Of a stretch of DNA of 64,000 nt, positions 39,739-62,397 are shown piece by piece; position 1 is the stretch's first letter; each line of letters begins with the position of its first letter. The notes below the pieces were generated by a model. It was not told where the DNA came from. It saw only the letters and a list, made by a program, of their open reading frames with translations, and searched no databases. The DNA lies in IMG/VR virus record IMGVR_UViG_3300032265_003945, positions 14,265 to 78,264 of that record, one strand, 5' to 3'. The translations under genes were made by a program, and so were the position numbers. This DNA comes from a virus.

Positions 39739-40112
39739 ATGAAAAATACTTATTATGTAGCTTTATCAAAAATTGATGGCAAAGGAGTTTTTGCCGACCA
39801 ATATTTTGTAACCGGAGATTATATTGGAAAATGTTTAATTTCTATTTTAAAACAAGATAAAAAAGAAGATAAAGAGTATGGTTATAGTGATGTTTCCGAG
39901 AGATTAGGAACTTTGGTGCAAAAAAAACTAAATTAGAAAAATATTTAAACCACAGCCCTCAACCCAATGCAGAATTATTTTTTCATCATGGACTGGAGTT
40001 ACATTTAAAAGCAATTGCTGATATTGCTAAAGATGAAGAAATTACAGTAAATTATGGAGATGCTTTTCCTAAGATAGATCAGTTGCAGATAAAGTTTATT
40101 AAATTAATCTAA
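39739..40112 (+). pseudogene. SET-domain protein split by a frameshift in an A8 run
   Basis: Frame 0 gives SKIDGKGVFA (SET motif I). The -1 frame from 39927 gives TKLEKYLNHSPQPNA...AIADIAKDEEITVNYG (NHS and EEITxxY motifs), ending at TAA 40112. Confidence 0.8.
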
Positions 40113-40799
40113 TAAAAATCCTGGATGGATAACTACAGTACATTCTGATTGCTCGGTTCCTCCTTCAGATCCAAGAACAAAAGCTTTATTAGTAGGAACT
40201 TCAAATATTTTATCATTATTATCTACTATAGAAGAAAATCCTAAGCCACCACCACCACCACCACCCCAATTTCCAAATCTTGTTTCACAATGACCGGTAT
40301 CTAAATTAATTATAGCTACATATCCTCTTTTGTAATCATAGATGGATTGATTTTGAGGATTAACCACATTAGATTTAATTAATCTTACAGTTCTTTTTTT
40401 ATATTTAATATTTTCTTTTAAAGCTTTTTGTAATTTTTTAGATAAACTAGATGTTGCGACTCGGTCGCCCGACCATTTATTAAATTTAGAGTCAGCGGGA
40501 GCTTCTTTTAAACTTTCAAAAAAATCATCTTCTGTTTTATCTACTTTTGTTTTATCTACTACAACATCTTCATGGAATTTTTTAAGTACTTCCCAGGCTT
40601 CATTTATATCAACGATATTTTGCGATCCGCCTAAATCTGAGCGATCTGGATGAAATTGAAAAGATTTTTTCTTATAAGCTCTTTTTATTTCTTCTAGACT
40701 AGCATGAAGAGAGACTTCTAAAATTTGAGCAGCCCTTTCAGGACTCATAGAAGCTAATTTAAAAAATAAATTTATTTTATCAAATAGTTTTTTAGACAT
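40104..40799 (-). CDS. J-domain (DnaJ-like) protein with KxA leader
   Basis: ILEVSLHASLEEIKRAYKKKSFQFHPDR..INEAWEVL, with an intact HPD motif. Confidence 0.85.
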   Translation of the reverse strand: MSKKLFDKINLFFKLASMSPERAAQILEVSLHASLEEIKRAYKKKSFQFHPDRSDLGGSQNIVDINEAWEVLKKFHEDVVVDKTKVDKTEDDFFESLKEAPADSKFNKWSGDRVATSSLSKKLQKALKENIKYKKRTVRLIKSNVVNPQNQSIYDYKRGYVAIINLDTGHCETRFGNWGGGGGGGLGFSSIVDNNDKIFEVPTNKAFVLGSEGGTEQSECTVVIHPGFLLD

Positions 40800-40815
40800 G
40801 ATTTAATATTAAATA

Positions 40816-41214
40816 ATGCCCAATATAGAAAAAATAATTTACAAAAAATAAAAAATAAAAGAAAAAGATAAACAGAAAAGTAAAAAGTATTATCAAAAAA
40901 ATAAACAAAAAATTCTTAGTCTAGAAAAAGAAAAATATTTAAATAATAAAGAAAAAATACAAGAAAAAAATAAAATTTATTATGTAAATAATAAAGAAAA
41001 AGTTTTATTGTCAAGTAAGAAATATTATTTAAATAATAAAAATAAAATTAATAATTATTATAAAAATTATTATAAAAATAAAAGAAAAGTAAATGTTAAT
41101 TTTAAGATAAAAACAGCAATTTCTGCCAATATAAGTTTTTATTTAAAAAATAATAATTTAAGTAAAAATAAAAAATCTACATTAAAATATTTAAATTATT
41201 CCATTGAAGAATAA
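40816..41214 (+). pseudogene. Truncated HNH endonuclease remnant (paralog of 41982-42683)
   Basis: KIKTAISANISFYLK..KNKKSTLKYLNYSIEE matches the paralog KLKTNISANINFYLK..KNKKSTLKHLPYKVDE. It has an in-frame stop near the 5' end, and the HNH core is replaced by a tnpB fragment. Confidence 0.8.
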
Positions 41215-41302
41215 AAACCAACGAGAATTAAACTTTATCTCTGGCAGATCTATCTCATGATTAAGTGCTGCATTTAAACCTGCATCTATTTCTAGATTAC
41301 AC
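41211..41302 (-). repeat. Inverted 92-bp copy of the tnpB 3' region (51488-51579)
   Basis: The reverse complement matches at 91/92 nt (mismatch at 41279). Confidence 0.9.
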
Positions 41303-41425
41303 CTGTTACTTTCTCTTCGGGCAAAGAAAGATATTGCAGAAGGAGAAGAGATTACGGTAGAATATGGAGACGCTTTTGAAAAAATAGATCAGCTGCAAAG
41401 AGATCTTGTTGCAAAAATAAAATAA
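41303..41425 (+). pseudogene. 3' remnant of a second SET-domain gene
   Basis: LLLSLRAKKDIAEGEEITVEYGDAFEKIDQLQ* is paralogous to KAIADIAKDEEITVNYGDAFPKIDQLQ at about 40.0 kb; no 5' half is present. Confidence 0.8.
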
Positions 41426-41965
41426 TTATGTTGTTGGAATCTTATTTTTACTTATATTTGCCAATTGTTTTTTTACTTCTTCGGCTTGTTGATCTGTCAT
41501 TTTCGATGGAGCGGCGGGAGATTGTGTGGGGCGAGGAGCTGCCACAGCTCCTCCCGGTAAGCTGGCAACCAATCTTTGTAAATTTTCAATTGGACCCATC
41601 CTAACGTCCTTGCTAACATATTCTTCGCCCATAGAAGATAGCACCAGCGGTACTTTGATATTTTGCTTGTTTCCTTTTAGGACATTAATAAACGCATTTA
41701 TCTTATAATTTAAGGAAGTTTTATTAATTAGCGAAGCATTAGATGCTTCCAATATATCTTCAATATAACCTTTAATTATATTGGGTAATTTTGAAGGAGG
41801 AACATTGGCTTTTTGAGAAATCACTTGCCCGCAATAGTAAGAAGAATATCCAGATAATTGCTGAGCTGCTTGTTTGATTTGCTCAACGAGCGGTGAAGGT
41901 TGGCTACTTTGAGCTAATTTAATTTCAAATCTATTGGCTAATTTAATTGCTTTGCTAATATTCAT
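41426..41965 (-). CDS. Hypothetical protein with KLA leader
   Basis: Likely start ATG 41965 (MNISKAIKLANRFEIKLAQ); the longer annotated start overlaps the divergent HNH gene. Confidence 0.65.
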   Translation of the reverse strand: MNISKAIKLANRFEIKLAQSSQPSPLVEQIKQAAQQLSGYSSYYCGQVISQKANVPPSKLPNIIKGYIEDILEASNASLINKTSLNYKINAFINVLKGNKQNIKVPLVLSSMGEEYVSKDVRMGPIENLQRLVASLPGGAVAAPRPTQSPAAPSKMTDQQAEEVKKQLANISKNKIPTT

Positions 41966-41981
41966 GACTATATTCAATTTT

Positions 41982-42683: not shown

Positions 42684-42691
42684 CGCTGAGG

Positions 42692-43594
42692 TCAAAGTAT
42701 TTTTCGTTCTTTAAGATGCCTAAGCCTTCGTACCGCAGGGTTGAAACCACTGCTCATGCTCCAGACACCTAAGCCCTTTGGTTGAGGTCTTAGGCTATTT
42801 TTTATATATTTAAGTTTATCCCAATAATTGGTTAGCAGAGTTCCATATTGACTGTTCAACAAATCGCTGACGCCAGGCAACTGGAATGAAATCCCGTTAT
42901 CGGTGACGTTAATCTCGTTTCCTTTCTCGATTAACGCACGGCTCGCTAATGCATATAAAGTTGCCCCTTCGACCAATATTTCTCCAAATTGATCTATGAA
43001 CATATCGTCATCAAATTGAAAATAGGTAAAATAGGGAACTTGATTGAAGTCCCAGAGGGCTCCTGCTAACATGGTAACTAACTGGTCTACGGAAAAGATG
43101 TCGCAAGTAACGTAAACTGTATTTCCATATTTATCTGTGGTCTTGACTTTCCCCGAGCTATTTAATCTTCTTTTTAACAATCTAAGTAGTTTGTTAATAT
43201 TTTTAATGGCTATCTGAGAATAATCAAATTCGGGCGTATCACCCAAATGAGCATATCCATCGCTATTTATTGCAGGGACATCCGTAGCACTAACGATAAA
43301 AGAAAAATTAGTCTCTACTCTAAAGCCATTAACAAAACCCACCCAAATATCGGAATAAACACCCAAGGGTCCATTGTAACCTACCGTATAAACAAAAGAA
43401 TACTTTCCCGTGTCCACTTTAGCCACACCAGCAGAAGTGGGTCCAAAAGACACTAATCCTGTCGGATCTACTACCGTGATAGTGGGAAAAATATCCGTAT
43501 CAATAGGGTTTCCTTGTGCGTCCTTAAATTGGACGGTTAAGTTAACTTGATCGTTTAAGTCAAGCATTTCCCCACGGGCTTTGATAGTTGCCAT
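42692..43594 (-). CDS. Head-tail adaptor/neck protein with N-terminal Ig-like (BppU-like) domain
   Basis: Start MATIK with AAGAGGA SD; 'VQFKDAQGNPID..GKYSFVYTV..GVYSDIW' Ig-like domain, then a helical connector-like domain (ALWDFNQVP; VTDNGISF). Confidence 0.6.
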   Translation of the reverse strand: MATIKARGEMLDLNDQVNLTVQFKDAQGNPIDTDIFPTITVVDPTGLVSFGPTSAGVAKVDTGKYSFVYTVGYNGPLGVYSDIWVGFVNGFRVETNFSFIVSATDVPAINSDGYAHLGDTPEFDYSQIAIKNINKLLRLLKRRLNSSGKVKTTDKYGNTVYVTCDIFSVDQLVTMLAGALWDFNQVPYFTYFQFDDDMFIDQFGEILVEGATLYALASRALIEKGNEINVTDNGISFQLPGVSDLLNSQYGTLLTNYWDKLKYIKNSLRPQPKGLGVWSMSSGFNPAVRRLRHLKERKIL

Positions 43595-43628
43595 GGATAA
43601 ATTCCTCTTTATTGATATATGTTTTTTT

Positions 43629-44435
43629 ATGCCTGCAAAAATAAGTGAAGATGTTTCTAAACAAATATGCAATTTATATTTATCCGGAGAAAAGGGAACT
43701 AATCTTAAAAAAATATTTAATTTAAATATTAAAACTATTTACAGTATTTTGTTTAGGAACGGAATTCAAATTAGGTCGCCGGAAGATTCTAAAAGAAAAT
43801 TTAATTTTGATCAAAATTATTTTGATCAAATTGATTGTCCCAGAAAAGCTTATTGGCTTGGCTTCATAGCCGGTGACGGCGGGATCGTAAGAAATTGTTT
43901 AAGATTTAACCTATCTAAACAAGATATTAATATTTTAAAACAGTTTAAAAAAGATTTAAAATCAGATCATAAAATAGAGCAATATTGCAATAATATTGTT
44001 AGTTTCACTTTAACTTCTAAAAAATTAAAAGAATCCTTAGCGCAATGGGAAATTTATCCCTCTAAATCTAAAATATTATCTCTTTGTTCAAAAATTCCAG
44101 ATCAATTTATTAATTATTATTTATTAGGGATTTTTGATGCAGATGGTTGCTTTAGCGTAGATAAGCGGCGAGGAATTAGATATTGCATGATCGGCTCCAC
44201 TATATCTATGTTGCAAATTCAAGAAATTTTAATTAAAAAATGTGGAGTAAATAGAGTAAAGCTTCACTCGCACCCAAGCGAAGGAATATCTCAACTTCAT
44301 TATTCTGGAAATCGTCAAGTTAAAAAAATTGTAGATTTTTTATATAAAAATCTAGATGTTTGCTTAGATAGAAAATTTAAAATCGCTTCTGATTTTTATT
44401 CTTTAGATCCCTTAAAAAATTACACTGCGCTATAA
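43629..44435 (+). CDS. LAGLIDADG homing endonuclease with N-terminal HTH
   Basis: KAYWLGFIAGDGGI and YLLGIFDADGCF motifs. Confidence 0.9.
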   Translation: MPAKISEDVSKQICNLYLSGEKGTNLKKIFNLNIKTIYSILFRNGIQIRSPEDSKRKFNFDQNYFDQIDCPRKAYWLGFIAGDGGIVRNCLRFNLSKQDINILKQFKKDLKSDHKIEQYCNNIVSFTLTSKKLKESLAQWEIYPSKSKILSLCSKIPDQFINYYLLGIFDADGCFSVDKRRGIRYCMIGSTISMLQIQEILIKKCGVNRVKLHSHPSEGISQLHYSGNRQVKKIVDFLYKNLDVCLDRKFKIASDFYSLDPLKNYTAL

Positions 44436-46182: not shown

Positions 46183-46941
46183 ATGTTTATTAACTCTTAT
46201 TCCTGGAAGTGTTTGTTAGGTGCTCAAGCCAAAGAAATTAAAGAATATGACGGAATCTACGCCTGGAAAGTGGGAAAGAGAAATCATTTGGTTGCTGATA
46301 GAAAATTAACCGAAGCAGATCTTGCCACTCTAAAAGAACACACTCCATGTAATTTTAATTACATGAGCAAAGATAACGTTGCTTTCTTAAAAAAATATTG
46401 CAAAATCACTACCTCTGCAGATCGATCAGTGGTTGTAGATTTAGAGAATTTTTCTTTAGACGGCGGAGAATTTAAAAAAACCAGACAATCATTTAATAAA
46501 TGTAAGAAAAATAATCTTACCGTAGAAAGTAATTTTAGAAAACTAAAAGATGTCGAAGATATGGTTGAGGAATGGTCCAATGACTATACCGACAAATATT
46601 TTAGAGATTTCTCAGGTAAAAATTATTATTTCTATAAAAATAATTTTCATCAAGATTGTATTAATGTCTTTATTTATCACCAAGATGCCCTAGTAGCTTT
46701 TAGCACTCTGTCCCCTAATCAAAATGGGAACTCTGTGTATATTATTGGTAAAGCCTTGTATAAAAGATTTGCGGGAATATCAGAGTATGCTGATATCGTT
46801 GCTTATCAACAAGCAATTGCTTCTGGAGTAAAAAAAATAGATATGGGACAAGCTCCCAAGAATCTTCTTAAATATAAAATGAAATATCCTGGAGCCTCAA
46901 TAGAAGTAAGTTATGATGGAAAAATTTTAGAAGTTATTTAG
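46183..46941 (+). CDS. DUF2156/MprF-C-like (FemABX/GNAT fold) aminoacyl-transferase-like protein
   Basis: 'VVDLENFSLDGGEFKKTRQSFNK', 'LVAFS', 'GKA...GISEY', 'IDMGQ..NLLKYKMKY' pattern. Confidence 0.6.
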   Translation: MFINSYSWKCLLGAQAKEIKEYDGIYAWKVGKRNHLVADRKLTEADLATLKEHTPCNFNYMSKDNVAFLKKYCKITTSADRSVVVDLENFSLDGGEFKKTRQSFNKCKKNNLTVESNFRKLKDVEDMVEEWSNDYTDKYFRDFSGKNYYFYKNNFHQDCINVFIYHQDALVAFSTLSPNQNGNSVYIIGKALYKRFAGISEYADIVAYQQAIASGVKKIDMGQAPKNLLKYKMKYPGASIEVSYDGKILEVI

Positions 46942-48162: not shown

Positions 48163-48345
48163 ATGATGGCTCCCATCAAAAAGCTAATCGAAGGAATTGA
48201 TTTCGTTTGCGTGGATGGGAAATTGATATGGACCGAAAAATTCTTGCTGGAGAGAGGGTTTTGCTGTAATGGAAGATGCCCTAATTGTCCGTATAAAATA
48301 AAAAATAATCTATCAATAAAAAAAAATCATAATTATGAAAAATAA
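48163..48345 (+). CDS. Small Cys-rich protein (DUF5522-like)
   Basis: WTEKFLLERGFCCNGRCPNCPY motif. Confidence 0.7.
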   Translation: MMAPIKKLIEGIDFVCVDGKLIWTEKFLLERGFCCNGRCPNCPYKIKNNLSIKKNHNYEK

Positions 48346-49783
48346 TATTTGTTACTTAACAGATTTTTTTTATAAGAAAGCCTCCGAAAAAATTGACACA
48401 GATTTATCTTTTGAAGCGGAGGAAATCTATCCACTCTTAAATAAGATGGGGTGTAAATCTATTTCAGATGCAGAAAAATATTTAAAAAATAAAATTATTC
48501 CCCTAATCAAAGAAATAGATTATATCTATCTTTTACCTAAAAAAAATCCATCCGGAGCATTAATTGGATCAATGGGTAGCTTACACTTGCTCACAGATGC
48601 AAGAGTTTCAGATTCTTCTCGGGAAGATTTAATTGGCTCTGGTGATGGAGTAAAGAATTTAATTCTTTATAGTTTTAACAAAGATATTTCGGAAAAAGAA
48701 ATTGAGGATTACTTTAAAACGGTTCCAATAAACGAATCTCCAACAGTGGCGCATTACTATTGGGTCGGGGAAGCATTGTCTCTTCTGTTAAATTTAAATC
48801 TAAAAGATGAAAATTTTGGAAATTGCTTTGAACAATTTGTTATTAAAAATAAATCTAAATTAGATGAATTGAATCAATTTAAAACTATTTCAGAGCCTAA
48901 TTTTTTGGGACAAGGGGCTCAAGGAGTTGTTTTTTTATTAGACCCTGGTAAAAAAGGAGAGTCGACAGCTAAAGTAGTTAAAATTTACACAAATAATGAT
49001 TTGCACGAGTCAAATAAAAAAAGCTTTAATGATTTGTATCAAAATCCCAGTTTGTCCGGTACAGAGATGAGGTTTTATGACCTTGGTAAGTTGGGTGATT
49101 TTTATTTTGATAACTATTCATTGCCCATTTATTATACAGTAATGGATTTAGTTGAGCCGGTTTTTGATAAAGCTGAAGATTATTCAGAAAAATCTGATAT
49201 TGAAAGAAAAATAAATAAGGTAACTGACTGTATTCATTCTGCCATGTTGGATTGTACAGGAGAATCTCGAAAACAATTAATTAAATTAACAAAATTAACA
49301 GAAGCAGAAAAAAACTCCTTGTTTAAAAAAATTAATAATTTAGTCTCTGAATATTTAAACTCTTCAATAAAAAATTATATAAAAGATTCTTTTAAATTAA
49401 GAGATAATTGGTTAGAGAAATTTACAGAAGAGTACGTCTTTAAGTGGATGACTGGTCGACGAGATTTAGCTTGTAGAAATCTAGGAGTTAATTCTAATGG
49501 CTATTTAGTATATTATGATCCCTACTACCCATCGTATGATGTTGGGGGTATAAGAAATAAAGATTCGACTTTAAATATAAATAATATTAATAAGTTAGCT
49601 AATCGTTTTTATAGATTAGCATCTGAAAATAAATTTGCTTGGGTAGAGGATGCTGAAGTTCCTCCTGAGCCTGGATCTACCCCTATTCCTGGCGGGCATG
49701 TAAGGTTTTACCACTATACAGGGGTAAATGAACCAAGCGCTTTAGGAGGACATCAGGCGGCAGAGTCTAAATATATTTTATAG
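48335..49783 (+). CDS. Protein kinase-like protein; 5' part of an IS607-interrupted kinase-ART gene
   Basis: LGQGAQGVVF (Gly loop), KVVKIY, RDLACRN (catalytic loop), YYDP; ends with the start of an ART-like domain (RFYHYTG). Confidence 0.75.
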   Translation: MKNNICYLTDFFYKKASEKIDTDLSFEAEEIYPLLNKMGCKSISDAEKYLKNKIIPLIKEIDYIYLLPKKNPSGALIGSMGSLHLLTDARVSDSSREDLIGSGDGVKNLILYSFNKDISEKEIEDYFKTVPINESPTVAHYYWVGEALSLLLNLNLKDENFGNCFEQFVIKNKSKLDELNQFKTISEPNFLGQGAQGVVFLLDPGKKGESTAKVVKIYTNNDLHESNKKSFNDLYQNPSLSGTEMRFYDLGKLGDFYFDNYSLPIYYTVMDLVEPVFDKAEDYSEKSDIERKINKVTDCIHSAMLDCTGESRKQLIKLTKLTEAEKNSLFKKINNLVSEYLNSSIKNYIKDSFKLRDNWLEKFTEEYVFKWMTGRRDLACRNLGVNSNGYLVYYDPYYPSYDVGGIRNKDSTLNINNINKLANRFYRLASENKFAWVEDAEVPPEPGSTPIPGGHVRFYHYTGVNEPSALGGHQAAESKYIL

Positions 49784-49834: not shown

Positions 49835-50416
49835 ATGAAATTATCTCAATGGGCAAAGAAAAGCGGATTAAGCTATCAAACAGCTTTTAATCTTTTTAAG
49901 AAAGGACAGCTTCCGGGTAAAGTTACTCAGTTGGCTTCCGGTACTATTCTAATCGAAGATAGCCCCATTGCAAATCGACAAGATGACTTAAAAACATATA
50001 TTTATTGCAGAGTCTCCTCTGCCAATAAGAAAGAAGATCTAAATCGTCAAGTAGATAGGTGCTTACAATTCTGTAATGCTAATGGCTGGGAAGTAGTAAA
50101 GGTTTATAAAGAAATTGCTTCTGGTATGAACGATAACAGAAAGCAATTAAACTTGCTTCTAGATGCAACTCCTAAAAGAATTGTGGTAGAACATAAGGAT
50201 AGATTAACTAGATTTGGTTTTAATTATTTATCTAGATTGCTTAATATTTTAAATTATCAGCTGGTCGTAATCAACAGAGATCAAGAAGATGAAGCGGATC
50301 TTATTAAAGACCTTGTTGCAATTATAACTTCTTTCTGCTGTAGATTGTATGGACTAAGAAGAGGCAGTAAGAAAGTTAAAGCAATCAAAGCAACATTAGA
50401 GGAGAATAATGATTAG
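49835..50416 (+). CDS. tnpA: IS607 serine recombinase TnpA
   Basis: N-terminal HTH MKLSQWAK, YCRVSS..DLNRQ, EIASGMN, EHKDRLTRFGF, SFCCRLYG. Confidence 0.95.
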   Translation: MKLSQWAKKSGLSYQTAFNLFKKGQLPGKVTQLASGTILIEDSPIANRQDDLKTYIYCRVSSANKKEDLNRQVDRCLQFCNANGWEVVKVYKEIASGMNDNRKQLNLLLDATPKRIVVEHKDRLTRFGFNYLSRLLNILNYQLVVINRDQEDEADLIKDLVAIITSFCCRLYGLRRGSKKVKAIKATLEENND

Positions 50417-51668
50417 ATCAACTAAACATTATCTCAATAGTTGCAACTCTGGCAAAAAGAAAATTTTATCAAATTTTCTTAAAGATTATCGTCATGCAGT
50501 TCAATCTTACATTGATTATATCTGGGATAACCAATTTACTAATCAGCATGGAGAAATTTGTTGGGATATAAATAGTGATAAATTATATCTTCCGACGTAT
50601 TTAAATTATAAAATAATATCTCATGAAAGACTGTCTGCTAGAGCTTTATCTGCGGCTTTAGAACAAGCTATCGGAATAGTTAAAGGTAGAACAGCTATCA
50701 GAAATAAAACTTTATACATAATAAAGAAAAGGTTAGAACAGAGCCAAACAATAGATTATTGGCATAAAAAGCTAGAAAAAAACAAGCTAACTAAACCAAT
50801 GGTTGGTGATAAGCTTCAAGCGGAATTATCTCAAAAGCAAATTGAATTTAGAGGTCAGTCTGATCACTTTGATATATTTGTTAAGCTTTATAGCACAGGA
50901 TATGAAGTTATCAAATTACCAGTTTCTTATACTAGATGTGATAAGAAATGGATTAATGCAAAAGGTAAGAGATTGGCTGGAGTGTTATTAACAGACAATT
51001 GTATTCAGCTAAGATATGAAGTTCCAGAGCCCGTTAAACAGACTGGCAAGACAGTAGGAGCAGATACTGGTTATAAAACCGTTCTTACCTTATCTAGCGG
51101 TCAGACAACACCAAAAACAGATACTCATGAGCATTCATTAGAGTCTATCTGTGCCACTTTAGCTAGAAAGAAAAAAGGATCTAAGGCTTTTAAGAAAGCT
51201 CAGGATCACAGACTTAACTTTGTTAACTGGTCAATTAACCAATTAAATTGGAATGATATTGGTCAGGTTAACTTAGAGCATATTTATGATATGAAACGTG
51301 GGAAAAGAACCAGTAGAAAAATGTCCGCTTGGTGCAACCCGCTAATTCATAATAAGATTATTAGAAATTTAGAGGAAGTTGGGGTCCAACTGAATCTACA
51401 ATCCAGCCCATATCGTTCAAGGAGATGTTCTGGATGCGGCATAGTACGAGAAAAGAACCGCAAAGGTAAGCTCTATAAATGCAATAAGTGTAATCTAGAA
51501 ATAGATGCAGATTTAAATGCAGCACTTAATCATGAGATAGATCTGCCAGAGATAAAGTTTAATTCTCGTTGGTTTTTATCAGAGCTATCTTGTTTCTATT
51601 GGAAACTGGATGGTTTATATGATGAAGCTGGGCGGGAGCTTAGAGTCCCTGCCACAAACAAAAGCTAA
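50409..51668 (+). CDS. tnpB: TnpB RNA-guided endonuclease
   Basis: RuvC-I GADTG, RuvC-II LEHI, CxxC...CxxC zinc finger, DADLNAA (RuvC-III). Confidence 0.93.
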   Translation: MIRSTKHYLNSCNSGKKKILSNFLKDYRHAVQSYIDYIWDNQFTNQHGEICWDINSDKLYLPTYLNYKIISHERLSARALSAALEQAIGIVKGRTAIRNKTLYIIKKRLEQSQTIDYWHKKLEKNKLTKPMVGDKLQAELSQKQIEFRGQSDHFDIFVKLYSTGYEVIKLPVSYTRCDKKWINAKGKRLAGVLLTDNCIQLRYEVPEPVKQTGKTVGADTGYKTVLTLSSGQTTPKTDTHEHSLESICATLARKKKGSKAFKKAQDHRLNFVNWSINQLNWNDIGQVNLEHIYDMKRGKRTSRKMSAWCNPLIHNKIIRNLEEVGVQLNLQSSPYRSRRCSGCGIVREKNRKGKLYKCNKCNLEIDADLNAALNHEIDLPEIKFNSRWFLSELSCFYWKLDGLYDEAGRELRVPATNKS

Positions 51669-51688: not shown

Positions 51689-52138
51689 GTTAACTCTTTG
51701 AAAAAAGATGGCATTTTAATGAGAGAGGCTAAAGGTAATACTTACGGAGAGCCTAATTTAGTTTGGGCTTCTGCTGAGAAACCAGGAAACTTTAAAGTAT
51801 TTGCGGAATTCTCTGTTTCAATGGATGATGAACGATGGAGATTGGGAAATCCAGACAAAGTTCCAGAAGAGTACAGCAAATTTACACTTAGCCCAGGCAA
51901 TCATTATAACATCTCTCCGGAAGAATATCATCGAAGAGGATCTAATGTTGGATTTACTGGCTCTATTCTTCCCGAAGAGATTTTAGCTGTGCATGAGCCA
52001 TGGCATCATAAATATAGATATATTTTAAAAAACCCAGAATTAATTGAAGAGATTTTGGCGGGCGAGCATGATTTTCTTTTAGATAATCAAGAATATGGTC
52101 CCGCTATTCAAAAAATAAAATATGAATATAAAAAATAA
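51689..52138 (+). pseudogene. 3' part of the interrupted gene: ADP-ribosyltransferase-like domain
   Basis: Same frame as 48335; rejoined HYT..SLKKDGI..VWAS..ILPEEI pattern of Tpt1/PARP-like ART folds. Confidence 0.6.
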
Positions 52139-52140: not shown

Positions 52141-52740
52141 TTATATTAAAGAGCTTATGCCTTTTGACATCCCATGAACATCCGAAGGATTAAATCCAAC
52201 AGTAATATGAAAATCTTTTGGATCTAAACCAAATTCTTTTCTTATATTGTTTCCAGCATCCCAAGAAATTACCATAAAATAAGCCTCTGAATTATCTTTA
52301 GAAGCTTTTCCTAAGCCTTTATTTTCTAAATTTGAATCAAAATTTTGTTTAGCTTTGTGCAAGATGTCTTTTTTTATAGCAGATTCTATTTCTTTTGTTG
52401 TTCCATTATATTTATTTTCTTCTTTATTTCTTTCTTTAATTTCTTTTACAATCGTACTTAGTTCTTTAGAATTAATAACTGTCATATGAGCTTCTTCGCC
52501 ATCTCTAGCTACTCTATTTGCAATTAAAAGATTATATGCAGTTTCATCATTTAATTTTTCTTTTAAAGCAATCTCTCCTTCTTTTTGGATTTCATTTAAT
52601 TTATTAGAAACAACTTCCATCGCTCCTTTTTCAATTTTAATGTCACTGTTAAGATCTAAATCGATCCCCATTTGAGCATATTTAAATTTAATTTCAAATT
52701 TATTAGCTAATTTAATTATTTTTTTAAAATTATTAGTCAT
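52141..52740 (-). CDS. 2H phosphoesterase with KLA leader
   Basis: Two HxT motifs: AHMTVI and FHITVGF. Confidence 0.8.
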   Translation of the reverse strand: MTNNFKKIIKLANKFEIKFKYAQMGIDLDLNSDIKIEKGAMEVVSNKLNEIQKEGEIALKEKLNDETAYNLLIANRVARDGEEAHMTVINSKELSTIVKEIKERNKEENKYNGTTKEIESAIKKDILHKAKQNFDSNLENKGLGKASKDNSEAYFMVISWDAGNNIRKEFGLDPKDFHITVGFNPSDVHGMSKGISSLI

Positions 52741-52820: not shown

Positions 52821-53408
52821 ATGTCATTAAAATCAATTATTAAAGTAGCAAACTATTATAATTTTAAATATGGATTTGATAAAGTAGCGGGCTCAATATT
52901 ACGAGATAAGTTTAAAGAATTTGAAAAATATCTAGAGGATCAAATTGAATCTGTTAATTTAAAGTATGATGTTTTTCCAAATTATATAGAAGGCATAAAA
53001 AATATATTTGAAGGATTTGGATTATCTGATGTGGATATGAATATTTTAAAAAATAAAGCTAATGCAACCGCATCAGATAAAACTTCTAAATTTCATGGTT
53101 CTGATCCATATAGCGTATACCGCCTTAATGAAAGAAAAAAAGCAGATGAAGATTATCGAAACTTAAAAAGAAAATTGCTTGGAAAAATAGATATCGAAGA
53201 GTCTCCGCTAGAAGATAGAGTTAAAAGATATAAAATTGAAAGACTTGAATTTGAGAAAAGAAAATTGCTTAATTCAATGGAAGAGTCTGGAGATTTTACA
53301 GACTATAATAAGATCGCAGAAATAGAAGACAAAATAAGAGAACTTAAAAATTTGCCGTCAATAAGTGACAAAAATGAGTTTACGCCTTTAGATGAATTTA
53401 TTTTTTAA
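52821..53408 (+). CDS. Hypothetical helical protein with KVA leader
   Basis: MSLKSIIKVANYYNFKYGFDKVAG; coiled C-terminus weakly UVR-like. Confidence 0.6.
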   Translation: MSLKSIIKVANYYNFKYGFDKVAGSILRDKFKEFEKYLEDQIESVNLKYDVFPNYIEGIKNIFEGFGLSDVDMNILKNKANATASDKTSKFHGSDPYSVYRLNERKKADEDYRNLKRKLLGKIDIEESPLEDRVKRYKIERLEFEKRKLLNSMEESGDFTDYNKIAEIEDKIRELKNLPSISDKNEFTPLDEFIF

Positions 53409-53446: not shown

Positions 53447-55378
53447 TTATTTATTGTTTTTGAACATATAAATCTTTTCGGATTTTACTTTATTTCCATT
53501 AAAGTGATAGCGCATGCTGACTAGATTTATTTCTTCTACAATCTCTCCAAAGTATTCTTTGGCGATTTCTACCATTTTATAATACTTGGCGGACACATTA
53601 ACTCCAAAATATTTTCCAGGTTTTAACATCCATTTAATATTTTCTAAAGTATCTCGCCAATATTTATTATAAAAATAATTAATTCCCTTATTGTATGATT
53701 GAGATAAAGAATCAGAATAAATCTCCAAATCATAATATGGAGGACTGCTCCAATATAAATCTACACTATTTTCTTCTCCTCGATAATATTCAGATCCTAT
53801 TTGAATTACTTCACAATCTTTAAAATTAAAATAATTTATCATGTTTTGCAACTCTACGGCGGTCAGTGGGTCGGTTCCAATGTATTTTCTACCACAAGAC
53901 ATCGCTCCTAGTAACCTGCCTCCAAATCCACTAGAATAATCTCCAACTACATCTCCGGGATTAGAATATTTTAAGCATATATACTTGGCAATAGCTGGTT
54001 TAAATAAACTAATGTAACCAGATAATCTCATGTCACGAACTTCATCTATCATTGTCATTGGACTGAAATTATAGCTTCCTCTTCCATCTAATAGTTTATT
54101 TGATACTACTTTTGTTATTTTTTCTTTGCCTCCATAAGCTTCAAATATACTACACTCCTCCCTTGTTTTTGAATGAAAAAAGCTATGACAAAAATATCGG
54201 CAAATGGAATTGCCCAATCTATGTTGATTGTTTAATTGAACTGTGGTTAAATCAACCTGACACTCAACCAAATCATTATATTGCTCTAGTAAATTATCAT
54301 CATCTGGATAAATAAAACCAAGATCCATTAACTTATTAACAATAGGCTCTAATAACTCTTTTCTATTATTCTCTGGCATGGTTTTAAGCGCAGCAGTATT
54401 CATCAATTGCCCGCCAACCTCAATTGGTTTTCTATAGTTATTTTTTTCTATCGTTCTATGAGATTCATGCATTGTTCTTTTTATTTCTTGATATTTTAAA
54501 TAATTATGATCCAAGCACACAATGCAAGAATGATAGAGCAATCCAAGAATTTTATTAATTTTTAAATTGCCATTGGCATAAATAGAATTTGTTTTACTCC
54601 ATGGATCAAAGTCTAATTTTAAATCCTCTTGAGCAAAAAAATCAATAATTTGATTTAGCAGTTCGTTTTTTCCAGAAATGTGTAATTTCCATTGACCATT
54701 CTTTTTTTGAGTTAAGCACCCCTTGCCGTCAAAATAACCTAAAATAAAATAAGATTGATATGTTGAATTAATTTGGGCAAGATTGAAATTTTTGTCTTTC
54801 TTTTTACCAAATCCTAGATTAATTAATTTTTCAACAATATGTTTATTTCCTATGCTAATTACAGAATAAGCATCGTCTTTAATGCTTTTAATAATTCTTT
54901 TATCCGCCCCCATAAACAGAGAAAATTTCTCTAAATGATTTCTTTTATTGGTAGGAACAGTGACAGTAATGGAGTTATTTTTATCTGATAGATGTGCATC
55001 GGAGTACAAGAACCCTAACCAATAAGCTTTTTCTTTTTGATCAATTTGATCAAAGATATTTTCATTAATTAGATGCTTTCTGTTGGATTCTGATTTAGAT
55101 CTTGCTAATCCAGCTTCTTTTGCCCATTTAATTATTCTTCTTTTGTCAATACTAAATTTAAAACCTAGGTTTTTGGCAGATGCGCCATTGGAATATAATA
55201 TAATTATTTCTGGTATTAAATTTTCGGAGAAAGTAACCTTATTAAGATTAAAATTATTGTTATTAATAATTTCTTTTACTTGATTAACTGGAATGTTTAA
55301 TTTTTCTGAAATTGCAGAAAAAGAAAGCCCATCGGAGGTCATTAATCCTATTGATTCAATAATTAAATTATTTATCAT
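53447..55378 (-). CDS. HTH-LAGLIDADG-DNA methyltransferase fusion
   Basis: KAYWLGFLYSDA and FILGYFDGKG, then DYSSGFGGRLLGA, YIGTDP and WSSPPYY. Confidence 0.85.
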   Translation of the reverse strand: MINNLIIESIGLMTSDGLSFSAISEKLNIPVNQVKEIINNNNFNLNKVTFSENLIPEIIILYSNGASAKNLGFKFSIDKRRIIKWAKEAGLARSKSESNRKHLINENIFDQIDQKEKAYWLGFLYSDAHLSDKNNSITVTVPTNKRNHLEKFSLFMGADKRIIKSIKDDAYSVISIGNKHIVEKLINLGFGKKKDKNFNLAQINSTYQSYFILGYFDGKGCLTQKKNGQWKLHISGKNELLNQIIDFFAQEDLKLDFDPWSKTNSIYANGNLKINKILGLLYHSCIVCLDHNYLKYQEIKRTMHESHRTIEKNNYRKPIEVGGQLMNTAALKTMPENNRKELLEPIVNKLMDLGFIYPDDDNLLEQYNDLVECQVDLTTVQLNNQHRLGNSICRYFCHSFFHSKTREECSIFEAYGGKEKITKVVSNKLLDGRGSYNFSPMTMIDEVRDMRLSGYISLFKPAIAKYICLKYSNPGDVVGDYSSGFGGRLLGAMSCGRKYIGTDPLTAVELQNMINYFNFKDCEVIQIGSEYYRGEENSVDLYWSSPPYYDLEIYSDSLSQSYNKGINYFYNKYWRDTLENIKWMLKPGKYFGVNVSAKYYKMVEIAKEYFGEIVEEINLVSMRYHFNGNKVKSEKIYMFKNNK

Positions 55379-56333
55379 TTTTCATTTCTTTATAGAGTTT
55401 AAATTTCAATACTTCTTGATATTTTTCATATTTTCTATCCATATAGAAATTTTGACAATCATTGTAAATATAATTTAAAAACTTGACACAATCATTAATA
55501 TTGCTGATGGTAATGTCTACCACTTCAGAGCGAGTGTACTTACTAACCGAGGATTTAATATCTAAACTGTTAAGTAAAAATTGCTGTAAACCATTTCCAA
55601 AATTTACATTGCAAGTAAAAATTACTCTGCACCTATTTTTTGCTACTGAAATACATCCATCTCCATCTAAATATCCTCTTAAAAAATGAGACATATATGG
55701 GAAATCTGGAAAAGTAATTTTAAATGTTTTATTGGGCATGCAACCTAATTTAATAAGGTCATCTTTCATGCGCTGACTATTAACTCCAAATCTACATATT
55801 TCATGTCCAGTGTCTGGCTTAATTCTGTTAGTTATTTTTTCAAAACCAAAAACTTGGTGAGAAAATAAGCATAGTACTTTTCTATCTTTATTTAAAATTT
55901 CAATTTTTATATATTTTCTATTTTTACTGACATTGCCATCGCTGAACATTAATCCTAAAAAATAAGATTTTTGCGCAGCGTCAATTTTTGAAAAATAATC
56001 AAATGTATGATTTGGATATTTTAACTTATTTTCTGTTGCCGGTCGAATACTTATCTTATTTCTTTTTAATATTCTGCATACGGTTGATCCGTTGATGCCA
56101 AGATCTTTGGCAATCTTCTCTGAGGACTCTCCATCGGAATATCTTTCAATAATTACTTTAATCTGCTCAGGAGAGGTTTTAACGCATCGATTCTTCTCTA
56201 TCCCATGATTCTTTAAAATTCTGTTAACACTCTCGGGAAAGATGCCGCAACGCTCTGCAATTTGGTTGGTGGGAGTTCCGGCTTGGTAAAGATTGATAAT
56301 TTGATCAATGTTGGATTTCGCTATTTTTTTCAT
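55368..56333 (-). CDS. LAGLIDADG homing endonuclease with two HTH repeats
   Basis: SYFLGLMFSDGNV and FLRGYLDGDGCI; GAGGGG SD before ATG 56333. Confidence 0.9.
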   Translation of the reverse strand: MKKIAKSNIDQIINLYQAGTPTNQIAERCGIFPESVNRILKNHGIEKNRCVKTSPEQIKVIIERYSDGESSEKIAKDLGINGSTVCRILKRNKISIRPATENKLKYPNHTFDYFSKIDAAQKSYFLGLMFSDGNVSKNRKYIKIEILNKDRKVLCLFSHQVFGFEKITNRIKPDTGHEICRFGVNSQRMKDDLIKLGCMPNKTFKITFPDFPYMSHFLRGYLDGDGCISVAKNRCRVIFTCNVNFGNGLQQFLLNSLDIKSSVSKYTRSEVVDITISNINDCVKFLNYIYNDCQNFYMDRKYEKYQEVLKFKLYKEMKNDK

Positions 56334-56425
56334 AGTTACCCCTCGCCACATATATAACAACTTATTACCATAATTACAATACATGGGTTCAATTATTATC
56401 TATTATTTTATTTGGGGTCAATTAC

Positions 56426-56462: not shown

Positions 56463-56505
56463 AGCTAATTTAAGCTATGAAAATATAGTATTTTCAGCCT
56501 AAATC

Positions 56506-57519
56506 TCAGCCAACAACGACTGATTTACGACCCGCAGAAACGCCGCGAGGATTGACAATACCGATACCTATGATTTCGGAAACAACCCAACCAAGCTTAA
56601 GTTGCTTGGGCTCGTCAGCTGGGAGTACCTCTATGTCTTGGCGTACGGGCATAACGCCTACGAATTCGGGATCTGCACAACCATATACGGTGCCAGGTGG
56701 TACGATCTTCGATACCATGATGTCCGAGCCCCAGATGTGAGCATAGAGACCGGTTTGAAGAACTTCGCGCATGGTGACGGGATCAACTTCGCCGCCCGAA
56801 CCAGCCGCTTGACCGCCGCCGCTGCCCCACTTGAGGATGTCGGTGAATTCATTGATGTTCATGAAGAACTTGGTGGTGACTAGGTCCCAGCGATCAATTT
56901 GAGCCTTCAATTCAACGAGGTCTCTCTTGAGAAGACCCGCGTCCGCGATGTCTTGGAGAGTGTTTTCGACGGAAGCCGCAGAATCAAGAGCGGCGAAGAC
57001 GTTGGCATCTTCTTGCGCCATGATTTCTTGGCGAGCCTTTTGAACCGCACGGTCGATGACGTTGAAGCGGCTGCGCTTGACTTCGGCAATACGAACGGTG
57101 GGGTTGGCGAAGATTTCGAATTCAGGAACAACAACACGGTCACCGAAGACGCGTGATTCTGGACCTGTGCCGTTTGAAGAAATAACAACGGCGGCGACGT
57201 CGATATCGCGATCGTAGACGGGCATGGCGCCTTGGGGAAGGGGATCGACTACGAGGGCGCGGCGAGCGATACCATGATAATCTAAGTTGCGGCGGATGGG
57301 GTTCGCCATCGCTTGAGCAAGAGCGATTTTGCCTTCTTGAGTCATGATGGCTCTAGAAACCAATTCGTCGCGCTTATCATCGGAAAGCGAAGGTTGACCC
57401 GCAAGACCTGTGTTTGAGGGTTGGTTATCTTCTAAAATAGACGCGTATTTAGCGATTGTGGTGAGAGCTTCCTTAACGGAAGAGGCGTTGATTTCGCCTT
57501 TGTTGTTAAACATGTTCAT
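56506..57519 (-). CDS. Major capsid protein (HK97 fold)
   Basis: 337 aa, AGGAG SD, strongly biased GC-rich codons, own terminator; 'PEFEIFANP...DRAVQKARQEIMAQEDANVF' backbone-helix pattern and C-terminal EIIGIGIVNP. Confidence 0.85.
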   Translation of the reverse strand: MNMFNNKGEINASSVKEALTTIAKYASILEDNQPSNTGLAGQPSLSDDKRDELVSRAIMTQEGKIALAQAMANPIRRNLDYHGIARRALVVDPLPQGAMPVYDRDIDVAAVVISSNGTGPESRVFGDRVVVPEFEIFANPTVRIAEVKRSRFNVIDRAVQKARQEIMAQEDANVFAALDSAASVENTLQDIADAGLLKRDLVELKAQIDRWDLVTTKFFMNINEFTDILKWGSGGGQAAGSGGEVDPVTMREVLQTGLYAHIWGSDIMVSKIVPPGTVYGCADPEFVGVMPVRQDIEVLPADEPKQLKLGWVVSEIIGIGIVNPRGVSAGRKSVVVG

Positions 57520-58852: not shown

Positions 58853-58859
58853 CTACATG

Positions 58860-61349
58860 TCACAGCTTGTCACCGCTCTTTAAAAAACAAGACAATTGAC
58901 TGTAAACATTTGCCATTTTAATTATCTTTCTTAATTTATTTTGAGCCACTTTATTCATTTCAATGGAAGAAGGATTAAATTCTGGACGTAATAAGTCCAA
59001 ATAATCTTCTTCATTAAAATCACTATAAGGCTCGTCTACATCAAAAGATCTCGGATCTTCTTCCATTTCTCCTGATCCAAAGCTAGAGCTTGATAATTTA
59101 TTATATTCTTTACCGCAAATAAAATATTTTATATTCCAATCTTGCTTTAATTTTTGAGCTAAATTAGCATAAAGATTATCTAAATTTAAATTATATTTTT
59201 TGATTAAAGAAAAATTAGCTTCAACATTATCTAAAATATACCCATTATCTTGAGGGACATAATGAAAATAACTTTGAGCAATAATTTGATTTTTATTTTT
59301 TAAGGTCAGCACTCCGGCTAACGGGTTAATAAAACTATCGATCATTGCCTGTTCGCCCGCTCCGCCAGGAGCTTGGCAACATTGAGTCGCGGCTCCAACT
59401 GTAAAGTGTTCAACGCTTTTATCAGGCAAAACTTCAAATCGTAAACCATTTTCTAAATTATAATTTAAATTAAATAATTTAGAGTCCTTTAGTTTTGCTT
59501 TTTCAATATTTTCAGAAATTAATTTTTTTGTTAAAATTATATTAATAATATTATCTACTTGATAAATTTTTTCTTTAAAAGAAAATGGAATCGGAGCTGA
59601 ACGAGCCACTATTTCTCTAATTTCCATTAAATTATGTCTAAATTGATCAAAATTAATATTGTAATGAACCAATAATGATTTTATTTTATTTTGATGTTCT
59701 TCAATTTCTTTATCAATACTAGAATTTATTGCCACATTAATAAATTTATTTACCAGATCTTGATCTAAATCCCATTTAGATTTTAACAATGATAAATACA
59801 AATCTGTATCATATCCTTCAAATTTAAAATCCATAGATTTTTCATCTACTTCCGGAATATCATATCCATGGTTATGAAAAATTCTGTTAATAATTTGGCT
59901 TCTTTTTTCTAAAGAAATAATCTGCTCATCAGATTTTATTCCTAATTTTTTTATCGAGGCAAGTAATAAATTAAAATCTTTAGAGAGCTTCCCGTTAGTT
60001 AATAAAGTAAATTTTAACAAATCCCCACTGATCAACATGCCGAGATTGATAGGCTTAATATTTTCATGATAAAATTGAATAAATTGATTAAAAAGATCAT
60101 TGTTATTTTTTAAAATATTACATAAGGTATAACAATTTAAATCTTCAAAATAATTATTAATATAACGATAAAGAGTTTTATATAAATTTTTTATTAATTC
60201 ATTTTTTTGTAAAGAAGATGTGTAAGATATTTTATTTAAAAATAATTGTTTTTCAATAATATTTGAATCAAGGTTTTCTTTTACAATGTCTCTGTATGAA
60301 GTTACATTGGATAACACCTCTCCTCGGTGTTCTTCGCTGTTTCTTAGAGCTTGTGCAATATCTTTATCATTTTTACAAACTGACATCAAAAAATTTAAAT
60401 CCCCAGAGGCGACTTTTTCAAAATCAGATACTGGAAAATTTTCTAAATTATATTTTTTGTGAAAAATGTATAATAAATTTTTATTTATTATAAAATTTTT
60501 TTTGTCAGATAAATAATTTGTTAAATTTTCTACGTATTCTTGACTTATCTCCAAAGCATAAAGAATATGGATTATTTGCCTTATTTGTCTTTTAAGAGGG
60601 TAATTATATTCTTTAAATTCAGAAAATTTTAATAAAATATCTTGTTCAATATATTTTGATTGATATGAAGCTATATCGTTAGTGATCATTATAAATTCAT
60701 TAATACTATTATTTAAATTTGAAATTTTTTCAAGTAATTTTTTACGCTGATCAAAGGTTAGGGAACGTTTGGCGTCAGATAATGCTACTGATAATTTATA
60801 GGCTTGATTTATATAAAATAAATATTTTAAATAAATTTGTTCAATTTTTTGAAATTTTAAAGTAAATTCTTTTTTAAATTTAATTAAATTATTTAGTTGG
60901 ATTTTTAAATCTTCATTAATATCTTCTTTATTTTTTATAATTTGTAAATATTCTTGAATTTCTTGGTCTTGAAATTGACGCTCTTGTATTTTTTCTTTTA
61001 TTTCTTTTTCATTTTCATTTAAATTTATATTAGATGCCTCGTCTAATTTAGAATATAATTCTTCTAATAATTGGCTTTCTCTAGATCCATTGACAATAGG
61101 CTCGTTAATCCGATCAAATATAATATAATTTAATGATGTTGCAAGAGATTTATCTTCATTAAGATATTTAATAATTTTGCTTCCAATTATATCAAAATTT
61201 TGATAATTTAAAGATTGAGTATATAATTCAGATACGTAATTTTCAAGATTAAAAGGGGCGGATTCTTTTGGTGACTCTGAGTCTTTTTCGGAGTCATGAA
61301 TAACTTCATTTGCTATTTTTTTTAATAAATAAAATCTATGCTTATTCAT
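58860..61349 (-). CDS. Large protein with KIA leader and C-terminal CCQ (PcfJ/GNAT-like?) domain
   Basis: 829 aa; VGAATQCCQAPGGAGE..IIAQSYF..ILDNVE; the fold call is tentative. Confidence 0.55.
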   Translation of the reverse strand: MNKHRFYLLKKIANEVIHDSEKDSESPKESAPFNLENYVSELYTQSLNYQNFDIIGSKIIKYLNEDKSLATSLNYIIFDRINEPIVNGSRESQLLEELYSKLDEASNINLNENEKEIKEKIQERQFQDQEIQEYLQIIKNKEDINEDLKIQLNNLIKFKKEFTLKFQKIEQIYLKYLFYINQAYKLSVALSDAKRSLTFDQRKKLLEKISNLNNSINEFIMITNDIASYQSKYIEQDILLKFSEFKEYNYPLKRQIRQIIHILYALEISQEYVENLTNYLSDKKNFIINKNLLYIFHKKYNLENFPVSDFEKVASGDLNFLMSVCKNDKDIAQALRNSEEHRGEVLSNVTSYRDIVKENLDSNIIEKQLFLNKISYTSSLQKNELIKNLYKTLYRYINNYFEDLNCYTLCNILKNNNDLFNQFIQFYHENIKPINLGMLISGDLLKFTLLTNGKLSKDFNLLLASIKKLGIKSDEQIISLEKRSQIINRIFHNHGYDIPEVDEKSMDFKFEGYDTDLYLSLLKSKWDLDQDLVNKFINVAINSSIDKEIEEHQNKIKSLLVHYNINFDQFRHNLMEIREIVARSAPIPFSFKEKIYQVDNIINIILTKKLISENIEKAKLKDSKLFNLNYNLENGLRFEVLPDKSVEHFTVGAATQCCQAPGGAGEQAMIDSFINPLAGVLTLKNKNQIIAQSYFHYVPQDNGYILDNVEANFSLIKKYNLNLDNLYANLAQKLKQDWNIKYFICGKEYNKLSSSSFGSGEMEEDPRSFDVDEPYSDFNEEDYLDLLRPEFNPSSIEMNKVAQNKLRKIIKMANVYSQLSCFLKSGDKL

Positions 61350-62397
61350 GACGGCTTATTTTTTTAAAATAATAAATTCTTTCATCTCTAGACCATTTAA
61401 TATCTCGATAAGCGCCTGCTTTTAAACTATCTTGATATTGTTTAAGATACTGTTTTATTTTTTCTTTTTCCTTTTCTTTTAGTAGTGATGGTAATCCCAA
61501 TAATCTATTTTCATAATTTTGATTTAATTCTTGATCTACCCAATCACTAATTTCTTCCGGGCTCATCATTTTTAATCGATCATTGGATACACTAGCTAAA
61601 TGAGATAAAATTCCAGACATAAATTCCGGATAATCATTTATTTCATAAAATTGATCTTCGCTCATTTGATCAACTGTTTTTCTTTCTATAAAAGAATAAA
61701 GAGCGGAGTTAATATTTTCTCTAATCTTAGATGATTGCAAATCTCGCATTTGTTGAATGAATTTTTCTTTTTCTTCAATCACTCGATACGCCTCTTCTTC
61801 GGAATAAAATTTAGTTCCAGGCAATGAAATATCTGTTTGCTTGGGAAGAGCGCTTTCTAAGCGAGAATTTCCACGGAGAAAAGGGTTATCAGAAATTCTA
61901 TAATTAGGTTGACCTTCACTAATTACATCCGTTTTTGATTGGTTTAAAAAATGATTGATTTCTTTAATTAATGGATGAACTAATTTTTGAGCTGATTCAG
62001 GGTCATTTATATTTATTAAATAAATAATTTGATCAACTTCTTTTACTAAATTTTCTATCCATTTTTTTATTTTTCTTGCTCGGTGAAATAATAATAGACT
62101 GGTACAGCATTCTGTTAAATCTTTATCTAGCTCAAATCTTTTAGGGAAATTTTTTATTTCCGGGGGAGAGTCATCTAATAATATTAAAAAAGATTGTAAA
62201 GATTGTAAATTTTCTTCTAAAGTAGAATATTTGGCTCGATCCCTTACTCTATTAATAAAGTTTAAACTAGATTGGCTGGGAGACCAAACATCATCCGTTT
62301 TTTCAGGTGATGAATCAGGAAATAAATCGCTTGGCAAACGATCTCTTGTCATTTCATCTGCTATTTTTTTTAATAAATAAAATCTATGCTTATTCAT
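61342..62397 (-). CDS. Hypothetical protein with the same KIA leader
   Basis: 351 aa; its first 13 aa are identical to those of the downstream gene. Confidence 0.6.
   Translation of the reverse strand: MNKHRFYLLKKIADEMTRDRLPSDLFPDSSPEKTDDVWSPSQSSLNFINRVRDRAKYSTLEENLQSLQSFLILLDDSPPEIKNFPKRFELDKDLTECCTSLLLFHRARKIKKWIENLVKEVDQIIYLININDPESAQKLVHPLIKEINHFLNQSKTDVISEGQPNYRISDNPFLRGNSRLESALPKQTDISLPGTKFYSEEEAYRVIEEKEKFIQQMRDLQSSKIRENINSALYSFIERKTVDQMSEDQFYEINDYPEFMSGILSHLASVSNDRLKMMSPEEISDWVDQELNQNYENRLLGLPSLLKEKEKEKIKQYLKQYQDSLKAGAYRDIKWSRDERIYYFKKISRHE

Follow-up and report, generated by a model that had tools for sequence, protein, structure and literature searches.

Why should a J-domain co-chaperone, a phosphoesterase, a major capsid protein and several proteins of no assigned function, all encoded by one virus, carry much the same short peptide? 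The question is raised by a 64,000-nucleotide (nt) stretch of viral DNA (the window), which comprises bases 14265-78264 of the linear 78,264-bp IMG/VR record IMGVR_UViG_3300032265_003945 (completeness about 15% according to CheckV). Eight proteins of the window, including the capsid protein and several enzymes, bear a short helix ending in Lys-x-Ala (K-x-A), here called the tag. The window is a fragment of a phage-G-like megaphage, since it encodes a capsid protein of the phage G type and since 80 IMG/VR contigs (of up to 480 kb) bear capsid genes 85-90% identical to its own. The sequence comparisons reported here indicate that the tag is no artefact, that it behaves as a module and that selection acts on it. 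Its most likely reading, to which we give about an even chance of being right, is that the K-x-A motif is a head-targeting and/or prohead-protease-processing signal of the phage-G-like megaphages.

The tag is composed of one or two copies of the unit hydrophobic-hydrophobic-K-x-A-(N/Q/S/D/G), as in IKLAN + IKLAQ. Genes were called as the longest non-overlapping open reading frames (ORFs) from the first ATG, GTG or TTG, so that some gene starts are approximate. The regular expression [FYLIMV].[KR].A[QSNDG], which was devised after the data had been seen, gave nine matches in the first 40 aa of eight out of 52 ORFs, where 1.7 were expected from the remaining proteome (p=8e-5). All of the positive ORFs lie at 40-62.4 kb (8/24, as opposed to 0/28 elsewhere in the window; p=0.001). 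The first-pass annotation had reported the tag on at least seven unrelated proteins, and the peptides that it quoted were all found in place. No HNH, endonuclease, methyltransferase, insertion sequence (IS) or tail gene of the window matches the expression within its first 40 aa, so the motif is not equally frequent in HNH and methyltransferase genes, the comparison on which that annotation had staked its idea. The carriers belong to different Pfam families or to none. The strongest group, I-I-K-(L/V/M)-A-N-x-(F/Y), is formed by the 179-aa, 2H and 195-aa proteins, the internal site of a kinase-like protein and the C-terminal end of an 829-aa protein, while the N-terminal tags of the J-domain and kinase-like proteins are weak when taken singly.

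The J-domain protein (231 aa; 40104..40799, minus strand) matches Pfam DnaJ at residues 25-74 (E=5.6e-11), has the HPD tripeptide (FHPDR) and carries a putative tag in residues 1-17 (nt 40749-40799) which reads KINLFFKLAS, ends FFKLA|S and matches the strict expression at residue 12. Together with the next gene, the J-domain gene constitutes an insertion relative to G001 (181 kb), one of two relatives used for comparison, which is syntenic with window positions 1-45 kb at a protein identity of 40-60%; the other, G004, is complete (452 kb). The 179-aa protein (41426..41965, minus strand) begins with AIKLANRFEIKLAQ (residues 1-19, nt 41909-41965; units IKLAN + IKLAQ), and this tag is retained in its homologues P0001 (98% identical) and P0002 (84%). 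Its positional orthologues begin ..KLADKFEYKL..KRAQ in G001 (127729-128127) and LADHFEYRLKKEAQ in G004 (389245-389730). The 2H phosphoesterase (199 aa; 52141..52740, minus strand) bears IIKLANKFEIKFKYAQ in residues 1-23 (nt 52672-52740), ending KYA|Q, and the 195-aa protein (52821..53408, plus strand) bears IIKVANYYNFKYGFDKVAG in residues 1-24 (nt 52821-52892), with the units IIKVAN + DKVA|G. The 829-aa protein (58860..61349, minus strand) and the 351-aa protein (61342..62397, minus strand) share the N-terminal tag MNKHRFYLLKKIA(N/D), in residues 1-14 of each (nt 61308-61349 and 62356-62397), and the former has in addition a C-terminal double motif, NKVAQNKLRKIIKMANVY (residues 798-816, nt 58902-58958). 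Pfam, PHROGs and Atlas yielded no function for the 829-, 351-, 195- and 179-aa proteins. No homologue of the 829-aa protein was found by an IMG/VR pattern scan or in five related genomes, IMG/VR pattern scans with the 829-aa, 179-aa, P0004 and P0016 queries gave no close relatives, and a metagenome scan with P0002 gave nothing.

The tags of the 829- and 351-aa proteins are identical over 39 nt from the ATG (the same 13 residues), the likeness stops past KKIA(N/D)E and the DNA upstream is unrelated; the two are a single DNA duplication. The tags of the 179-aa and 2H proteins have nine out of ten codons in common (P=0.015 under the codon usage of this genome). It follows from these two pairs that tags have moved between genes. 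Such copying is also at the centre of a rather improbable alternative, according to which the tag has no common function and consists of leaders copied by recombination (from the 179-aa to the 2H gene, and from the 829-aa to the 351-aa gene) along with chance K-x-A matches in an AT-rich proteome which is rich in Lys, Ile, Phe and Asn. The likeness of the two best pairs at the DNA level fits this account, but mobile-element genes of like composition lack the motif, and across orthologues of 40-60% identity the tag is better kept than its carrier. In P0013, a homologue of the 195-aa protein, 20 of the 24 tag residues are matched as against an overall identity of 61%.

The 2H protein allows the tag to be followed through a large family. 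It matches Pfam 2H-SAK (E=1.3e-26), and H85-x-T87 and H178-x-T180 are retained by all of 60 homologues. A HMMER search over 1.84 billion representatives recovered 773 homologues; among the 46 best matches, whose N-termini were read, the tag is present on only the three nearest (40-44% identical), in all of which the Gln following the Ala is invariant, and more than 140 more distant homologues, including metagenomic loci, are without it. The AlphaFold2 model of the protein (predicted local distance difference test score, pLDDT, 93) places the tag in a lone helix (residues 3-23) ending in A-Q, which is followed by a nine-residue linker (24-32) and by the domain from residue 33 onwards.

A tag recurs within one of the carriers. 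The kinase-like ORF (48335..49783, plus strand) is the 5' part of a gene for a 624-aa protein into which an IS607-type element (49835..51668, plus strand) has been inserted; the element comprises a serine recombinase (49835-50416) and a TnpB-like gene (50409-51668), and matches phrog_6620 (transposase, E=3.8e-52) and phrog_12300 (E=3.7e-18). The 3' remainder of the split gene (51698..52138, plus strand), for a putative "ART-like" C-terminal domain (ART, ADP-ribosyltransferase), aligns past ..AAES of P0003 and P0011. The insertion is recent, because the near-identical relatives P0009 and P0011 (624 aa, 97% identical) keep the gene uninterrupted and without the IS607 element. The N-terminal tag, LTDFFYKKAS, occupies residues 1-17 (48335-48385), and the internal tag, INKLANRFYRLAS (49586-49624), separates the kinase-like part from the start of the C-terminal domain. 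A homologue of about 40% identity, P0004, stops 13 aa past its equivalent ..YKVAQ.., so that the tag is not strictly an N-terminal address. Among the enzyme names given in the first-pass annotation, DnaJ and 2H are supported by Pfam, while the kinase and ART labels find no support there and depend on motifs and weak Atlas leads. Pfam gave no match for the kinase-like ORF or for the intact 624-aa homologue P0011, Pfam and PHROG gave none for the 51698-52138 remainder, and the two-domain protein matches no PolyVal Pfam family. The motifs GQGAxG, VVKI and RRDLACRN can be seen in the kinase-like ORF, and its Atlas leads to kinase families are weak (score 0.83-0.84), one weak lead being to Kinase-PolyVal. 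A 92-bp stretch at 41211-41302, within the insertion that bears the J-domain and 179-aa genes, is the reverse complement (91/92) of a part of the TnpB-like gene (51488-51579) some 10 kb away.

The major capsid protein (337 aa; 56506..57519, minus strand) matches phrog_2522 (E=1.4e-77), has 52% identity with Bacillus phage G gp27 and carries IAKYAS at residues 22-27, with KYA|S at 24-27 (nt 57442-57519 encode residues 1-26). Of the 80 related capsid genes, 79 encode K-Y-A, within K-Y-A-(A/S), and the remaining one K-F-A. The third codon positions beneath these kept residues vary among the related genes, which argues for selection on K-Y-A in the capsid protein and against an origin of the motif by copying and chance. 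A KLAN-type expression is essentially absent from the flanks of the capsid gene in the 80 relatives, because gene content differs there. The capsid gene of the window is itself flanked by several HNH genes, in surroundings unlike those of all 80 relatives.

Enrichment of the motif recurs in the two relatives and is concentrated in their head modules. The expression [FYLIM].[KR].A[QS], applied to the first 45 aa in G001 and fixed beforehand for G004, gave 11 matches in G001 against 1.4 expected (p=2e-7) and 13 in G004 against 4.7 expected (p=0.0012). The 19-ORF head module of G001 accounts for eight of its 11 matches (p=4e-7), and the 18-ORF head module of G004 for five of its 13 (p=1.6e-5), the two modules being mutually orthologous and hence not independent of one another. 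The block between portal and capsid in G001 has six tagged N-termini (..FDNFIKIAQ.., ..LEIQKYAQ.., ..FRSLEKIAQ.., ..FGNFNKRAQ.., ..LDNFKKFAS.. and ..ILKKANDYY..), to which the capsid protein and one ORF closer to the portal are to be added. Head-core families retain F-x-x-F-x-K-I-A-Q (60 loci) and L-E-K-V-A (36 loci). The recurrence of the enrichment in these genomes and in phage G, and its clustering in head modules, speak against copied leaders and chance. An untagged ORF in the structural region of G001 (132855-133727) shows by eye a patatin-like phospholipase motif (..GGGCKGAF..).

The motif also precedes what is probably the head protease. A head-module protein of 1187-1219 aa in the relatives (G004 281824-285483, L106 1824-5483; G001 160995-164558) matches phrog_18299, head maturation protease, in residues 106-214 (E=6e-13), the domain thus being N-terminal, and can be aligned by eye with gp19 of phage G, the product named head-maturation protease in PMC12484599. 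In 25 homologues the segment ahead of the protease domain reads ..N-F-x-K-x-A-x-N-L-K-K-I-A-P-K-A-E-D-F.., so that the motif is present twice; F33, A44 and P45 do not vary, while K35, A37 and K41 hardly do. Two blocks, CIDHKSSSVDH and VSMGTAVG, are kept throughout these homologues; their D, H, K and several of their Ser residues never change, and they look like His and Ser catalytic motifs. Pfam, PDB sequence and profile searches with the megaphage protease came back empty, and its AlphaFold2 model is poor (pLDDT 53). The relatives' protease-bearing protein is far longer than phage G gp19 (300 aa), and its C-terminal part of about 900 residues has no family assignment beyond phrog_2774 (function unknown). 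Because the motif marks N-termini of the relatives' head modules, the capsid protein and the protease-domain protein, a capsid-targeting or prohead-protease signal is favoured. To this extent the capsid-targeting and prohead-protease proposal of the first-pass annotation is partly supported.

Phage G itself carries the same kind of tag. A scan of its whole genome (NC_023719.1, 497 kb) found M-K-R-L-x-K-K-A-(S/N/D), close variants included, at the N-termini of at least eight proteins: gp38 (28218-28733), gp251 (178671-179204), gp347 (255911-256453) and gp351 (258975-259427) have the exact form, and gp233 (163172-163849), gp238 (167993-168730) and the ORFs at 435497 and 482110 have related ones. 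In the first 25 aa, the expression [LIMFV].[KR].A[NSDQ] gave 15 matches where 6.5 were expected (p=0.003). Directly after the tag, gp251 continues ..LYHGTSS.. and gp233, whose form of the tag is MTRLLKLKKLAS and whose gene adjoins an ADP-ribosylglycohydrolase gene, continues ..LFHTTSS..; both segments resemble by eye the ..FYHYTG.. that follows the junction tag of the window, and to the eye they look ART-like. The products gp20 and gp21, encoded next to the protease gene, start ..LKKTA.. and ..RKKLA... The tagged phage G proteins match no Pfam family, and PHROGs and Atlas gave them no function.

Several observations weigh against a head-targeting or processing signal. The bare K-x-A is too loose to distinguish the tag. 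In three genomes taken together, K.AQ shows only a 2.7-fold N-terminal enrichment (p=9e-5) and ranks 11th among 6752 patterns, and an ungapped matrix built from the relatives' head proteins does not raise the window tags over a shuffled background: the 829/351 N-termini score 12.6 and the kinase-like N-terminus 11.6, against a mean of 11.8 for the best match in shuffled proteomes. These mild values also speak for copied leaders and chance, as does the outcome of an unbiased scan for three-residue N-terminal patterns genome-wide, which was headed by the signatures of Zn-ribbon and GIY-YIG paralogues. The Ala is followed by different residues in different tags (Q, S, A, N, D, G, K, R, E), which leaves no cleavage rule to be read from the tag. 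Tags also occur at C-termini (in the 829-aa protein and P0004), unlike a classical N-terminal capsid-targeting sequence (CTS), and the relatives show no C-terminal enrichment of the motif. The motif resembles generic coiled-coil heptads such as the designed LKKIAQ. The 78-kb fragment to which the window belongs encodes neither protease nor portal. The tagged accessory proteins have no homologues in phage G, G001 or G004 by BLASTP, and what ties them to the head module is therefore the motif itself. The phage G capsid protein gp27 (282 aa; L001 8995-9843) is without the entire conserved N-terminal extension of about 42 residues. Finally, docking, the cut and its position, packaging and injection are in this clade what we infer.

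Some of the same observations would suit a helix which is never cut and which acts as a docking or oligomerisation element, of a short coiled-coil type, for a common partner other than the prohead perhaps, such as an assembly factory, a chaperone or the other carriers. Such an element could sit N-terminally, internally or C-terminally, as the tag does, and the variable residue after the Ala would suit it; its likeness to designed heptads and the free helix on a linker in the AlphaFold2 model of the 2H protein agree with it as well, and the J-domain protein among the carriers would agree with a chaperone as the partner. We nevertheless regard it as unlikely. The concentration of the motif in the relatives' head module, capsid protein and protease points to the prohead as the partner, and the absence of the extension from the phage G protein indicates that it is dispensable in the mature capsid lattice, which fits its removal rather than its persistence as an uncleaved helix.

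Two further alternatives concern the N-terminus itself. The tag might be an amphipathic membrane-targeting helix or a product of codon bias at translation initiation. The tags are Lys-rich and moderately amphipathic, and six tagged proteins rank within the top 16 of the 52 by hydrophobic moment, yet none is an outlier; moreover two bearers of the motif, the capsid protein and the head protease, are not membrane proteins, and an invariant Ala (GCN) together with internal and C-terminal copies does not fit a start-codon effect. This makes either form of the explanation very improbable. In staphylococcal phage 80alpha, capsid and scaffold proteins are cut by the host cysteine protease Prp at a motif like that of ribosomal protein L27. 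A mimic of the L27 propeptide, cut by a Prp-type protease of the host, would find a superficial parallel in KINLFF..AS of the J-domain protein, and the host of phage G is a Firmicute, a member of the Prp-bearing group. Such a site is nonetheless disfavoured because the residue before the Ala is variable (K, L, Y, I, V, T, R, N, E) instead of a conserved Phe, and because neither this record nor five related ones contain Peptidase_Prp (PF04327), for which control genomes were positive. With no conserved Phe-Phe or His-Phe before Ala-Ser and no PF04327 in the six records, the Prp/L27 propeptide was rejected, and we consider it the least probable of the explanations, barely credible for these proteins.

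If the head-targeting or processing signal is accepted, a mechanism can be outlined. The short amphipathic helix, whose hydrophobic-x-Lys-x-Ala end leads through a small or polar residue into a flexible linker, would dock its carrier on the assembling prohead, either on the scaffold core or on the capsid interior, and the head-maturation protease of the phage would trim at or near K-x-A. The same trimming would apply to the capsid protein, to core or scaffold proteins and to the protease, and the tagged J-domain protein, the kinase-like two-domain protein, the 2H phosphoesterase and three function-unassigned proteins would be loaded into the head, from which these accessory enzymes could enter the host cell along with the DNA. 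A broader proposal, which we put forward tentatively and hold somewhat less probable than its opposite, is that a clade-wide helix address, shuffled by recombination, may bring a changing set of lineage-specific enzymes into the capsid, to be delivered together with the DNA (here the J-domain co-chaperone, the kinase-like two-domain protein and the 2H phosphoesterase; in phage G, a set including proteins that are ART-like by eye), and that doubly tagged or junction-tagged proteins may be cut into separate effectors in the head.

The carriers are set in a gene neighbourhood of mixed content. Positions 1-39 kb of the window hold a long tail and baseplate module, and 40-62 kb is dense in homing endonucleases, HNH genes and methyltransferases, besides the IS607 element. 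Four endonuclease paralogues of the phrog_4645 type are present in the window (26941-27942, 43581-44435, 53447-55378 and 55368-56384), one of them fused to a DNA methyltransferase. Two untagged proteins are encoded among the accessory genes, namely a FemAB/LPG_synthase_C-like protein (46183-46941; Pfam E=5e-13) and a predicted lipoprotein, small and rich in Ser and Thr (47770-48069).

Proteins delivered from the capsid are a phage's first tools in its host and can divert host machinery ahead of all phage gene expression. How such proteins are chosen for loading is little understood except in T4 and the phiKZ-like phages. Should the tag be an address code, candidate delivered effectors could be listed directly from the metagenomic sequence of phage-G-like megaphages, which are distributed globally and of which phage G is the sole cultivated megaphage. 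It could also be used to bring foreign proteins into very large capsids, an application already made of the T4 CTS. A tag of this kind is present in phage G as well, so that existing phage G material could be used to test the idea.

Precedents exist in the CTS of the T4 internal proteins and Alt, and in the propeptides of SPN3US and phiKZ (PMC9026906, PMC5694885, PMC5512222, PMC10052503). As in the T4 system, where the prohead protease gp21 removes the peptide, a short N-terminal peptide is common to unrelated proteins, the motif is also found in the capsid protein, core proteins and protease, and there are enzymes among the carriers, T4 Alt being an ADP-ribosyltransferase with a propeptide that is packaged and injected. 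The T4 signal (IPI-III and Alt) has the form L/I-x-E, whereas the megaphage motif is hydrophobic-x-K-x-A, and the megaphage tags are longer (13-26 aa), often doubled and also situated at C-termini and at a domain junction. The megaphage protease differs from gp21 in being divergent, with a PHROG match and no Pfam family, and the megaphage system is known from its sequence alone. The heads of phiKZ and SPN3US likewise are giant-phage heads in which one short motif is common to many head proteins, and they contain many processed proteins as well as ejection proteins; they belong to another lineage, with another protease (gp175/gp245), which cuts after the motif S/A/G-x-E, and their sites have been mapped by mass spectrometry, while those of the megaphages are read from sequence.

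Herpesvirus assemblins offer a parallel for the residues themselves, since they cut after Ala, as in YLQA|T and VQA|S of pseudorabies virus (PMC4498786). Here too Ala is followed by a small polar residue, and the M-site lies a few dozen residues from the capsid-binding C-terminus, much as the 829-aa protein has its second motif near the C-terminus. Three residues ahead of the cut, the assemblin sites have an aliphatic residue, where the megaphage motif, if cut after its Ala, would have Lys. No homology of the megaphage protease to assemblins could be demonstrated with empty PDB searches and a poor AlphaFold2 model. Polyvalent proteins and other packaged phage effectors contain enzymatic effector domains which are predicted to travel in the capsid (PMC5512222). 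They resemble the present case in that effector domains (the kinase-like part with its second domain, and 2H) are encoded among late structural genes, and differ from it in that the megaphage proteins are mostly single-domain proteins with a common peptide tag and not one giant polypeptide, and have no Pfam PolyVal match. In the literature searched, no description was found of the K-x-A motif, of its spread over phage-G-like megaphages including phage G, or of the cargo set, and the M-K-R-L-x-K-K-A-(S/N/D) proteins of phage G have not previously been described as a class. The principle of a shared head tag is already known from these systems, and what appears to be new, judged from that literature, is this particular motif, its megaphage-wide spread and the set of cargo proteins that bear it.

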